Source: a virus. From it: a stretch of DNA of 5,718 bases. Below are positions 3,080-5,718 of the stretch, piece by piece (positions within the stretch are counted from its first letter, which is position 1; the number at the start of each line of letters is the position of its first letter). The DNA is taken from the IMG/VR virus record IMGVR_UViG_3300045988_001066, positions 1 through 5,718 of that record; one strand, given 5' to 3'. Under the pieces are notes generated by a model. It saw only the letters and a list, made by a program, of their open reading frames with translations. It was not told the DNA's origin and made no database searches. Position numbers and translations under genes: made by a program.

Positions 3080-3103
3080 GTTGTTCACCTCTCTTCATTT
3101 CGT

Positions 3104-3132
3104 ATTTTACTTTTTTTTTAATCGCTTGTCAA
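3104..3132 (-). promoter_or_regulatory. Sigma70-type promoter driving the gene array (-35 TTGACA 3132..3127, 17-nt spacer, -10 TAAAAT 3109..3104)
   Basis: The minus strand reads attcaaaacaaaaaacagTTGACAagcgattaaaaaaaaagTAAAATacgaaatgaagagaggtgaacaacATG. The -35 is perfect, the spacer optimal and the -10 matches 5/6. An A-rich UP-like tract lies upstream and the first gene about 25 nt downstream. Confidence 0.72.
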
Positions 3133-3150
3133 CTGTTTTTTGTTTTGAAT

Positions 3151-3222
3151 GGCGCTTTAGCGCCTTGCCGTATGGAGCGCAGCGGAATGCGGCTTAATCC
3201 ATTCCTTTTTAGCGCTGTGCGC
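3151..3222. other. Cluster of short GC-rich inverted repeats upstream of the promoter
   Basis: GGCGC-ttta-GCGCC (3151..3164). GGAATG-10 nt-CATTCC (3184..3205) followed by TTTTT on the plus strand. Flanking GCGCAGC (3177..3183) / GCTGtgCGC (3214..3222) can pair with a 2-nt bulge. Confidence 0.4.
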
Positions 3223-3272
3223 GTTTATGCCGCTTTATTATATAACTTGTTGTAGGAGTAGTAGTAGGTACT

Positions 3273-3445
3273 GTTGAAAAGTTGAAAGTAGTAAAAATTA
3301 CTCGTTATCACGTGATAATTAAGAAATATTATCAGTTGAAAAAATTGTTGAAAAATTGTTGAAATGTTGAATGTTCGTCATTATGACTAATTTTATTGTG
3401 CACTTTTATGTTGAAAACCTGTTGAAAGTGTTGAAACTGTTGAAA
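3273..3445 (+). repeat. Iteron-like array: ten direct copies of GTTGAA(A/T), mostly TGTTGAAA, in three clusters
   Basis: Copies start at 3273 and 3281; at 3335, 3347, 3358 and 3366 (the last is GTTGAAT); and at 3410, 3421, 3430 and 3439. All are in one orientation, with spacing of 8 to 12 nt within clusters. Each copy ends in an A-tract. Confidence 0.9.
3305..3334. promoter_or_regulatory. Operator-like palindromes built from TGATAA(T) half-sites
   Basis: TTATCAcgTGATAA is a perfect 14-bp palindrome (3305..3318). It shares its right half with TGATAAT-8 nt-ATTATCA (3313..3334). The site lies between iteron clusters 1 and 2. Confidence 0.45.
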
Positions 3446-3452
3446 ACTAATT

Positions 3453-3499
3453 TACGCGCATGTGCGCGTGCGCGTTTCGCGCGCGTGCGCATGTGCGTA
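3453..3499. repeat. Imperfect 22-bp palindrome made of strictly alternating purine-pyrimidine sequence (cruciform / Z-DNA-prone / RNA hairpin)
   Basis: taCGCGCATGTGCGCGTGCGCG-ttt-CGCGCGCGTGCGCATGTGCGta. Pairing i+j=6952 gives 18 Watson-Crick pairs plus 4 G.T pairs (3458/3494, 3463/3489, 3466/3486, 3469/3483) on the plus strand. Purines and pyrimidines alternate without a break over 3453..3475 and 3478..3500. Confidence 0.85.
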
Positions 3500-3508
3500 C
3501 TAGCGGCA

Positions 3509-3524
3509 GCCCCATGATTGGGGC
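3509..3524. other. Small hairpin GCCCCA-tgat-TGGGGC
   Basis: A 6-bp inverted repeat with a 4-nt loop, between the GC palindrome and the plus-strand terminator. Confidence 0.35.
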
Positions 3525-3531
3525 GCGACGC

Positions 3532-3565
3532 AAGGGGTTGACTTTTAAGTCAACCCCTTTTATTT
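3532..3565 (+). terminator. Intrinsic (rho-independent) terminator oriented on the plus strand, antisense to all genes
   Basis: AAGGGGTTGACTT-tt-AAGTCAACCCCTT is a perfect inverted repeat (3532..3559). On the plus strand it runs straight into TTTTATTT. On the minus strand the same stem is followed by GCGTCGCG, with no U-tract. Both arms carry the GTTGA core of the iterons. Confidence 0.6.
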
Positions 3566-3602
3566 ACTGACTAGGCTGATACATGGAGTCTTTAAACTAT
3601 TA

Positions 3603-3636
3603 TAGCCCAGTACCTTACTTGATAGGTACTGGGCTA
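3603..3636 (-). terminator. 13-bp perfect hairpin 10 nt after the VP4 stop: candidate VP4 terminator and/or replication-origin hairpin
   Basis: tAGCCCAGTACCT-tacttgat-AGGTACTGGGCTa. On the minus strand it is followed by an A/T-rich but only weakly U-rich tail (TAATAGTTTAAAG). Confidence 0.45.
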
Positions 3637-3646
3637 GGTGACACCG

Positions 3647-4666
3647 TTAGAGTGTCCCACTCTTCTTCATTTGCTTTTTGATCACTCTTTCTTTTGTCTT
3701 GCATTGTTCTGCAAAGTCTGTATTTTCATATTTTAGCCGGTTTTCTGCTATGGCTGCTGCCTGTCTGCTTTGTTTAATTCTCCACAATCTTTGTGGGTTT
3801 TCGGCTTCCATCATTTTTTCATAATAACGTGGAATTTGCGCTTTCTTTCCGTTTGTACATTGGATGTATCCTTGTCTCCATATTTCTTCTTTGTGTTCTT
3901 GGTAATAGTGGTCTCCTAGTCCGGGTTTTAAGCTCATGCACGCGAATGGCTTTTGTTGACCTAACTCGTAGTATTGGTTTGCTTTCTTTCCGTCTATCTC
4001 GTACATTTTTTTTGTTACGTATCCTGCAACATATCTATATGTCTCTGGTACTGCTTGTGCTATCTGTATTTGACCCATGCCCCATAGGTCTGCTAGCCAT
4101 TGGCTTGTGAAGTATCCGTTGTGCTGTATCTTGTACAGGTGTTTCAGGTCTGTTGGTTGCCATCCATATAGTATCATGTGGTAATGTGGCCTTGCTGTCT
4201 GTTCTCCATACTCTCCTGCCACAAAATAGCGTAATTTGCCCCTGTAAGCCTTCCTAAGGCGTTTTAGAAATTTTTGAATGTCAGTATACAGTAATGTTTG
4301 TACGCTCTCAGGAGTCTTCTTTCCTGGCTTCCAGACGTATTGCACTTTCCTCATGATTTCGCCTGTGTTTATGATCATTCCTGGTACATGGTTATCATCG
4401 TATGTTAGCGTGATAAACCATACTTCTTCTTTGGGATAATCTCGTGCTTCTAATTCTATTCGTGTTGTCCAGTCTTCTCTTTGTCTTATTCTGCATCCGA
4501 TGCACTGCCCGCATGGTATTAACATGGCATCTTTTCTGTACATCAAATCTTCATATTTTAGCTGTTTTCCCGCTAACTGAGAAAAGCGGGAGAGTGAATA
4601 CACCCTCCCGCTAATGTCTTTGTCGTTAGGGTTGTACAGCCTTATTAATGGCTTGTAACAACTCAT
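3647..4666 (-). CDS. VP4: Rolling-circle replication initiation protein VP4 (HUH endonuclease superfamily, 339 aa)
   Basis: N-terminal cysteine cluster PCGQCIGCRIRQ, motif 1 FITLTYD, motif 2 ARPHYHMILYG, catalytic-Tyr motif 3 YVAGYVTKK. The ATG overlaps the VP2 stop (ATGA at 4666..4663). Confidence 0.95.
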   Translation of the reverse strand: MSCYKPLIRLYNPNDKDISGRVYSLSRFSQLAGKQLKYEDLMYRKDAMLIPCGQCIGCRIRQREDWTTRIELEARDYPKEEVWFITLTYDDNHVPGMIINTGEIMRKVQYVWKPGKKTPESVQTLLYTDIQKFLKRLRKAYRGKLRYFVAGEYGEQTARPHYHMILYGWQPTDLKHLYKIQHNGYFTSQWLADLWGMGQIQIAQAVPETYRYVAGYVTKKMYEIDGKKANQYYELGQQKPFACMSLKPGLGDHYYQEHKEEIWRQGYIQCTNGKKAQIPRYYEKMMEAENPQRLWRIKQSRQAAAIAENRLKYENTDFAEQCKTKERVIKKQMKKSGTL

Positions 4667-5522: not shown

Positions 5523-5550
5523 AAAAAATAGCCCGGGTTTTGCCCGGGCT
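5523..5550 (-). terminator. Intrinsic terminator/attenuator hairpin between VP1 and VP2
   Basis: The minus strand reads AGCCCGGG-caaaa-CCCGGGCT (5550..5530) followed by ATTTTTT (5529..5523). The hairpin starts 10 nt after the VP1 stop. Confidence 0.7.
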
Positions 5551-5560: not shown

Positions 5561-5718
5561 TTACAGTTTGTACAAGCCCGGTACACTGTACAAGGGCATA
5601 CAACGTGTGGTCTTGTTTGCTACGCGGATTGCGCCAAAGAATTGGTCTTCTTTCTGTTCAATGAGCGTTCTTGCAATTTCGGTTTTGCCTTCCGCCATCC
5701 ATTCTTGAGACAGTGTTG
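5561..5718 (-). CDS. VP1: Major capsid protein VP1, C-terminal end (unique part 5561..5663; 5664..5718 duplicates 1..55)
   Basis: The frame carried over from base 1 reads ...TLSQEWMAEGKTEIARTLIEQKEDQFFGAIRVANKTTRCMPLYSVPGLYKL then TAA at 5563..5561. 1583 + 103 nt = 1686 nt = 561 codons plus stop. Confidence 0.93.
   Translation of the reverse strand, partial: TLSQEWMAEGKTEIARTLIEQKEDQFFGAIRVANKTTRCMPLYSVPGLYKL
5664..5718. repeat. Terminal direct repeat, copy 2 (identical to 1..55)
   Basis: Same 55-mer as 1..55; see copy 1. Confidence 0.97.

Follow-up and report, generated by a model that had tools for sequence, protein, structure and literature searches.

A conserved palindrome in gokushovirus noncoding DNA with pairing selected on the strand opposite the genes

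Which strand does a long GC-rich palindrome in the noncoding DNA of a gokushovirus serve, and in what molecule does it fold? The window analysed here is the whole 5,718-nt stretch of IMG/VR record IMGVR_UViG_3300045988_001066, in which bases 1-55 recur as an exact copy at 5664-5718, and we thus read it as a circular genome, about 5663 nt long, whose ends overlap in the record (the junction is spanned by the capsid gene). All its long ORFs lie on the - strand, so that the + strand is antisense; in the textbook view of Microviridae the coding strand (here the - strand) is the packaged one. Pfam matches were obtained for the capsid (Phage_F), for VP4 as a rolling-circle Rep (REP_ORF2-G2P) and for a peptidase M15, and the closest GenBank records are gut gokushoviruses of human and pig (76-88% nucleotide identity). 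The coding strand is A-rich over the whole window (A 37% vs T 18%) and more so at the four-fold degenerate sites of VP4 (A 53% vs T 13%), a skew opposite to that of the T-rich phiX174 virion strand. Gokushoviruses are among the most abundant ssDNA phages of the human gut; we know of no defined origin, priming site or regulatory RNA in them, and to our knowledge their replication is almost unknown. The sole large noncoding region (3089-3646) reaches from the VP4 stop codon (3647) to a strong predicted sigma-70-type promoter on the - strand (TTGACA-17-TAAAAT, 3104-3132), which would serve the operon of peptidase M15 and structural genes and has an equivalent in relatives.

Within this region the palindrome occupies 3453-3499 (left arm 3453-3474, TTT loop 3475-3477, right arm 3478-3499) and the sequence bears out how the first-pass annotation had described it: two 23-nt runs of alternating purines and pyrimidines (3453-3475 and 3478-3500) and a 22-bp stem, which on the + strand comprises 18 Watson-Crick pairs and four G.T pairs (3458.3494, 3463.3489, 3466.3486, 3469.3483) as its only departures from Watson-Crick pairing. 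Shuffling the genome 300 times with dinucleotides preserved gave longest alternating runs of 13.4 nt on average and never above 23. The palindrome (68% GC) had been placed in an otherwise AT-rich region, which is accurate for the upstream side (3233-3452, 26% GC) but not for the downstream side (3500-3646, 48% GC). Folding of the + strand, as DNA and as RNA, returns exactly the 22-bp hairpin (DNA -24.5 kcal/mol, z -3.64, with none of 200 shuffles as good; RNA -41.7 kcal/mol, z -5.14), and the proposed comparison of both strands comes out in its favour in either chemistry, the - strand reaching only -17.5 kcal/mol as DNA (z -0.66, 47 of 200 shuffles as good) and -27.7 kcal/mol as RNA (z -2.07). 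The placement of all four G.T pairs on one strand had been given a chance of about 1/8, a figure that ignores the 2:1 excess of CA over TG steps on the coding strand; because of this excess the asymmetry is not significant within the window alone, and it becomes so only across relatives.

The relatives compared were 80 loci whose VP4 is at least 90% identical, together with over 110 other microvirus contigs gathered through a shared noncoding motif; the combined set extends down to 37% VP4 identity. Homologous GC-rich alternating palindromes were found at 135 loci (78 distinct sequences) in clades of 45-100% VP4 identity, with stems of 18-28 bp and loops of 3-4 nt; a few lineages have arms that repeat each other exactly in direct orientation. 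The outer ends of the stems do not alternate and differ from clade to clade, yet remain complementary (TATAG/CTATA, AATGCA/TGCATT, ATACAGGC/GCCTGTAT, ACCG/CGGT), which marks a true dyad rather than a mere CG repeat. Relatives without the element had been named as a ground for doubting it, and there are such relatives: L023 and L081 lack the palindrome, as do several clades at 46-49% VP4 identity and nearly all of the 38% clade, and in L029 it is half-deleted. It is therefore not essential; where present, however, it keeps its pairing on the antisense strand. A scan of viral contigs with the palindrome core returned mostly chance matches in GC-rich phages and one further microvirus, the smaller and GC-richer L276 (a 4509-nt contig), in which a similar CG palindrome (CGCGCGCGCGCGCGCG-AAA-CGCGCACGCACACGCG, about 4465-4500) has the same CA-on-coding-strand asymmetry and apparently lies within the C-terminal coding region of the Rep gene (an Arg/Ala/Thr-rich tail).

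The strand preference emerges from the 18-bp core of the 78 distinct homologues. Read on the coding strand, it holds 1090 Watson-Crick, 301 A.C, 5 G.T and 2 other pairs, so that standard pairs make up 78% on this strand vs about 99% on the antisense strand; a coding-strand T stands opposite A 94 times and opposite G 5 times, while a coding-strand A is set against C 301 times. One such mismatch, with the A at position 6 of the right arm on the coding strand, is kept in 62 of the 78 sequences. The antisense fold is the stabler one in 76 of the 78, both as RNA (mean -38.7 vs -27.2 kcal/mol) and as DNA. In an antisense alignment of 62 sequences 99.1% of the cells are paired, vs 95.4 +/- 0.3% in shuffles (0 of 500 as high), and changes on both sides of the pair have occurred at 9 of the 18 core pairs. 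Together with the covarying outer stems, these double changes answer the suggestion that covariation be sought in relatives, and the earlier surmise that the functional fold belongs to the + strand (as RNA, or as DNA complementary to the coding strand) is strongly supported by the pairing in these comparisons of 62-78 distinct homologues.

A palindrome of this composition could nevertheless look structured for trivial reasons. A (CG)n tract is self-complementary, hence the high pairing baseline in the shuffles, and registers slid by two positions are still 90-94% paired; moreover, the coding strand is A-biased (53% at four-fold sites), such that mutation bias acting on a functionless low-complexity tract might shape the rest. 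Mutation bias and selection were set apart by parsimony counts on a VP4 tree of 67 taxa (a tree that recombination can distort), used in place of the presence or absence of polymorphism at four-fold sites, which is saturated. At neutral four-fold sites G->A and C->T changes on the coding strand amount to 8.7 and 5.3 events per site (ratio 1.65), whereas in the palindrome core they fall to 4.1 and 1.0, i.e. two-fold and five-fold below neutral. Counted as pairs on the coding strand, 55 changes lead from Watson-Crick to A.C and 4 from Watson-Crick to G.T, 23 return from A.C to Watson-Crick and 13 are compensated (Watson-Crick to Watson-Crick). The 55:4 ratio lies far beyond the neutral expectation of about 1.3-1.65:1 and thus demonstrates, within this comparison of homologues, selection that keeps the antisense strand paired: substitutions that would create A.C in the antisense helix are strongly removed, and those giving G.T are only mildly disfavoured. 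The asymmetry tracks the gene strand, regardless of where the neighbouring sequence module described below lies and which way it points. With position, arm lengths and the 3-4 nt loop conserved over 45-100% VP4 identity, non-CG outer stems that covary and an asymmetry of substitution far past the neutral ratio, we find it scarcely credible that the palindrome has no function.

The same counts bear on the duplex itself, as a Z-DNA tract and/or a cruciform in the supercoiled replicative form, where it would serve as a sink for supercoils, as a barrier or as a dyad-symmetric site for a binding protein. Tracts of d(CG)n and d(CA)n form Z-DNA, and palindromes such as pT181 IR-II form cruciforms, in supercoiled DNA; the element is akin to both in its two 23-nt runs of CG and CA/TG steps, its near-perfect dyad and its 3-nt spacer (3-4 nt among relatives), and alternation is strict in 1396 of the 1398 core pairs across relatives (2 exceptions), some lineages even having arms that are exact direct repeats. 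As a statement on composition the earlier suggestion of Z-DNA stands, then, but as a reason for conservation it does not, nor does the cruciform. Both models are strand-symmetric: they assign the same energetics to G->A and C->T, predict no strand preference and would leave the ratio at about 1.3-1.65:1 instead of the 55 and 4 changes counted. The element also departs from such tracts in its covarying stem ends, which do not alternate. The asymmetry might be a side effect, for instance of selection against a strong virion-strand hairpin, although the five-fold drop of C->T on the coding strand does not follow from a mere weakening of the coding-strand hairpin. An explanation at the duplex level is thus, to our judgement, distinctly unlikely.

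A hairpin serving the packaged coding strand would be the conventional expectation. The phiX174 primosome assembly site, the G4 origin, the M13 minus origin and plasmid ssoA act on the packaged (+) strand, and the palindrome resembles these origin hairpins of ssDNA replicons in being GC-rich, intergenic and placed beside the replication gene of a small circular ssDNA replicon. A complementary-strand origin role is indeed expected of the intergenic GC-rich hairpins of Microviridae (PMC9865509). The coding strand of the window still folds (-17.5 kcal/mol as DNA), and purine-rich coding-strand loops among the homologues include the GCGAAGC type. Selection on a coding-strand hairpin (be it of the phiX174, G4 or plasmid single-strand origin kind), however, predicts the opposite asymmetry. 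The coding-strand DNA fold is no better than those of shuffled sequences, each stem carries 2-6 persistent A.C mismatches while G.T, the milder mismatch there, is almost absent, many relatives miss the element, and pairing is maintained on the other strand (78% on the coding strand vs about 99%). We regard a classical complementary-strand origin as very unlikely. Were the non-coding strand instead the single-stranded, packaged one, with the hairpin as its complementary-strand origin, selection for antisense pairing as DNA would be explained, and the T-richness of the antisense strand (53% T at four-fold sites, by complement) would be like that of the phiX174 virion strand. Such an arrangement goes against the established positive-sense genome of Microviridae (as in the ICTV description), and the skew follows gene orientation in all clades, for which codon usage accounts equally well; we hold it to be highly improbable.

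The surroundings on the + strand point to another kind of molecule. Directly after the palindrome, at 3503-3531, folding reveals a second hairpin (GCG..CAGCCCC-loop-GGGGCG..CGC) of near-invariant sequence across clades, its motif CAGCCCC...GGGGCG...ACGCAAGGGG being unchanged in 13 sequences from clades of 38-100% VP4 identity. It is followed by a predicted intrinsic terminator at 3532-3567, with a 12-bp stem (GGGGTTGAC.../...GTCAACCCC, 3532-3559) and a T-run (TTTTATTT) to 3567; this is the terminator that had been reported 33 nt downstream of the palindrome, and its stem covaries in relatives (GGGGCTGAC, GGGGGTAGGCC, GGGGAAGAC, GGGTCTCCCGT, GGGGCCGCAAA), with the T-rich tail on the antisense side. 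The 123-nt unit of three hairpins folds to -79.5 kcal/mol (z -9.7). The proposed link between palindrome and terminator is upheld, since palindrome, second hairpin and terminator recur as a unit in this antisense order in 22 of 113 distinct contexts, including clades at 45% VP4 identity (L111, L153, L115) and one at 38% (L176), where the unit sits in a different place of the noncoding region. The palindrome is thus a real, conserved and strand-specific structural element, and the description that suits it best is that of the first hairpin in an antisense unit of three. The palindrome as an intrinsic terminator in its own right was rejected, for no T-run comes after its stem (the + strand continues with CTAGCGGCAG); on the - strand only a truncated, 7-bp terminator-like version with the tail AAATTAGTTT was flagged, and the tails after the palindrome in relatives are not consistently T-rich.

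We reason that the palindrome is a conserved accessory hairpin on the strand opposite the genes, and that an antisense non-coding RNA stem-loop is the most likely form of it, an explanation that we put first yet advance tentatively, at somewhat less than even confidence. We rank it first because a terminator in antisense orientation would have no purpose unless RNA polymerase moved in that direction. We stress that the existence of the element, its conservation, the selection for its antisense pairing and the second hairpin and terminator on the same strand are direct findings, while its transcription and its role as RNA are what we infer from the arrangement of these parts. The palindrome would form the 5' stem-loop of a short non-coding RNA transcribed antisense to the genes, or of read-through transcripts of that polarity; such RNA would run through the noncoding region in the direction of the 3' end of rep (VP4) and stop at the + strand terminator (3532-3567). 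G.U pairs being cheap in RNA, coding-strand G-to-A changes would be tolerated, and changes that place A.C in the antisense helix would be removed or compensated. The stem-loop may stabilise or insulate the antisense transcript, or may take part in replication control beside the origin-like module.

This reading has its own difficulties. A cis-antisense small RNA should have a conserved antisense structure with compensatory and G.U-tolerant changes, which is what the homologues display, and a same-strand terminator downstream, which the window has; the terminator is nonetheless missing in about 80% of the palindrome-bearing contexts (113 distinct). No conserved -35/-10 antisense promoter was found beside the palindrome in 104 contexts (best score at most 9/12), an exact TATAAT occurring in 34 of them and the window offering a single + strand promoter candidate upstream (a 9/12 match, 3305-3332). 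Rfam searches, run with gathering as well as permissive thresholds, yielded no family for the hairpin, the sole matches being microRNA-like and due to chance. These points, and the dispensability of the element, count against an antisense RNA. The closest known likenesses are lambda OOP RNA, ColE1 RNA I and R1 CopA, short cis-antisense RNAs of phages and plasmids that end at an intrinsic terminator; they share with the unit compact stable hairpins opposite genes, a hairpin and U-run at the end, a place beside a replication gene or origin region, and a tolerance of G.U pairs. They differ in that here no promoter was found, in that the gokushovirus unit ends before the VP4 coding region and so has no evident target overlap, and in that the long alternating-CG helix has no counterpart among them. 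We know of no such antisense RNA in Microviridae. In some relatives (L013, 4234-4261, and L023) an extra antisense-oriented terminator (ACCATTTTCG...CGAAAATGGT and a T-run) lies between the main promoter and the neighbouring module, which suggests that these phages actively contain antisense transcription in their noncoding region.

That neighbouring module, 215 bp in length (3233-3448, + strand), shows the strongest conservation of all noncoding DNA in these phages, with occurrences in over 50 GenBank records and over 110 IMG/VR contigs, and is retained where the Rep proteins are only 37-96% identical (e.g., L002 601-819, L003 601-813, L005). It consists of an AT-rich start, TAG trios, a box and about 12 direct GTTGAAA repeats: AACTTGTTG-TAG-GAG-TAG-TAG-TAG spans 3244-3267 (the three consecutive TAG at 3259-3267), and after the spacer GTAC comes the box TGTTGAAAA (3272-3280). 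The module start TAACTTGTTGTAGnnGTAGTAGTAG is invariant, and the roughly 12 direct repeats that follow read GTTGAAA or GTGGAAA. Among 162 modules, 157 carry at least three TAG (range (TAG)3-6), 127 have the 4-nt spacer, and TGTGGAAAA serves as the proximal box 59 times, TGTTGAAAA 30 times; boxes with at most one mismatch from TGTGNAWAA number about 4.9 per module in one orientation and 0.4 in the other. The window module contains no perfect DnaA box, and the repeat consensus TGTTGAAA is two mismatches away from TGTGGATAA.

The basal unwinding system of bacterial oriC is made of DnaA boxes, a GC spacer, DnaA-trios (3'-GAT-5') and AT-rich DNA (PMC8287927, PMC7561715, PMC8235120). Its published criteria (PMC8287927) allow up to 2 mismatches in the DnaA box and up to 16 bp of spacer, and ask for three or more NAN trios, ideally 3'-GAT-5', with AT-rich DNA beyond them. 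The module agrees with this description throughout, relative polarity included (polarity was compared with the E. coli oriC sequence and with the C. difficile trio string): order, spacing and polarity match on one strand, from AT-rich DNA through (TAG)3-6 and the 4-nt spacer to TGTGGAAAA/TGTTGAAAA and co-oriented boxes. It differs from a bacterial oriC in sitting in a 5.7-kb rolling-circle phage, and its DnaA sites are putative, for which reason we treat the apparent resemblance to a DnaA-trio/DnaA-box unwinding element as a lead. A literature search found no paper linking Microviridae with DnaA boxes or trios, and another on gokushovirus noncoding elements, origins and nick sites found nothing relevant beyond generic statements on intergenic hairpins. 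A scan of bacterial genomes for the module gave chance matches in coding repeats and one co-binned phage contig, and pointed to no host.

The orientation of the module relative to the genes is variable, being forward in 82 and reverse in 27 of 109 contigs (the window, L001, L004, L016, L019, L021, L023 and the whole clade at about 38% VP4 identity are reverse). Its flanks do not turn with it: the palindrome on one side and, on the other, a short GC-rich element (AGCGCTGTGCGC, or GCGCACAGCGCT on the coding strand; 3210-3221, + strand, in the window) keep their orientation, and the latter is found at the module boundary in forward- and reverse-module genomes alike. Both flanks are GCGC-rich and self-complementary, features that could serve inversion or an exchange of the cassette. 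A variable hairpin slot of the window module holds a perfect 14-bp palindrome (TTATCACGTGATAA, 3305-3318, + strand), whose place is taken in relatives by other small hairpins (e.g., TTTAACGC-TAAA-GCGTAAA); the TTATCACGTGATAA version recurs in the distant L100. Two other interpretations of module sequences were discarded. AACTTG at the module start is not supported as a phiX174-like nick site, by which the orientation of the module would determine the packaged strand, given that composition skew and palindrome asymmetry follow the genes, not the module, and that a hairpin after VP4 with a covarying stem and conserved loop is the better origin candidate. A small protein from the + strand ORF 3371-3517 was dismissed as well, its C-terminal part being wholly different in forward- and reverse-module genomes and the repeats extending outside the ORF.

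If the module does open, the antisense strand might fold as DNA rather than as RNA, the main rival of the RNA stem-loop, which we consider possible but doubtful. DnaA on the coding (trio) strand would leave the antisense strand free to fold, A.C mismatches would keep the coding-strand arms open, and the hairpin would stabilise the bubble or mark a site of helicase or primase loading; in a variant, the antisense strand would be the lagging-strand template of a fork leaving the module. Such a hairpin needs no promoter, and it sits well with the architecture and orientation of the module (which fit the described basal unwinding system), with the greater stability of the antisense DNA fold in 76 of 78 homologues and with the geometry of most relatives, where the palindrome lies 5-60 nt past the AT-rich end of the DnaA-trio/box-like element and the trio strand is the coding one (in every forward-type genome, 50-120 nt separate it from the module start downstream). 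However, it is the genes, not the module, that the asymmetry follows: the window lineage has an inverted module whose far end adjoins the palindrome, and in L176 the palindrome is on the trio side, yet its asymmetry is opposite relative to the module. A whole clade keeps the module without any palindrome, the DnaA sites are putative, and the antisense terminator is left unexplained.

Antisense RNA hairpins and origin-associated hairpins are both known kinds of element, and neither has been described in this phage family. A more inclusive proposal, and in our estimate a rather unlikely one, joins the two: a portable oriC-like cassette (AT-rich DNA, DnaA-trios and an array of DnaA boxes), usable in either orientation, would recruit host DnaA, and the adjoining antisense three-hairpin unit would be a small antisense RNA gene or a hairpin of the strand that DnaA leaves free. 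If true, a rolling-circle microvirus would depend on unwinding driven by the host initiator and on an antisense structured element, neither of which has been described for Microviridae. Whichever molecule folds, the evolution of the hairpin marks the non-coding strand as functional, which is unexpected for a phage thought to expose its coding strand only. Palindrome and module bear on whether antisense RNAs are made, which strand is packaged and whether host DnaA takes part in microvirus replication, and the element offers a concrete handle on gokushovirus replication that can be tested by mutation. Synthetic genomes have already been used to revive gokushoviruses (PMC7062461).

Lysogenic gokushoviruses are known to carry dif/XerCD recombination sites (PMC7062461), and the palindrome is likewise a partly palindromic noncoding gokushovirus motif, in whose right arm GTGCGCAT resembles the XerC arm GGTGCGCATAA of the dif consensus. 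It was nevertheless rejected as a dif site: with 22-nt arms, a 3-nt spacer and no distinct XerD-like arm, it differs from the 11 + 6 + 11 bp layout of dif, in which XerC and XerD arms surround a 6-8 bp spacer. The antisense motif GCGCGTG resembles a Lactococcus-type Chi site, but any CG/TG tract contains it.

The hairpin directly 3' of the VP4/Rep stop codon (13 bp, 3603-3636, - strand) has a conserved loop, CTATCAAGTAAGG on the coding strand, that stays unchanged while the stem covaries between clades. A covarying stem with a conserved loop is typical of the origins of HUH Reps, and the hairpin may be the rolling-circle nick site as well as a terminator; in relatives, a T-rich stretch comes after its counterparts on the coding strand, and that of L005 is terminator-like. 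In a distant clade the loop of the post-VP4 hairpin is ATAGACAAG[G/T]AAG, and the hairpin lies upstream of VP4. A second copy of the loop motif (CTATCAA[A/G]TAG, coding strand) occurs about 45 nt downstream of the hairpin, directly before the palindrome, in many forward-type genomes (L005, L002, L003 and L021 are among the genomes that have it) and is absent from the window. Elsewhere in the window, a - strand hairpin (AGCCCGGG...CCCGGGCT, then ATTTTTT; 5530-5550) sits after the capsid stop (5561) and ahead of the VP2 start (5520); it has the look of an internal attenuating terminator and gave a weak Rfam match to Trp_leader. In L026 (8781 nt) several hundred bases of unrelated AT-rich sequence occupy the usual place of palindrome and module, and the contigs L012 and L073 (about 10.9 kb), being about twice the genome length, may be dimers or mis-assemblies.
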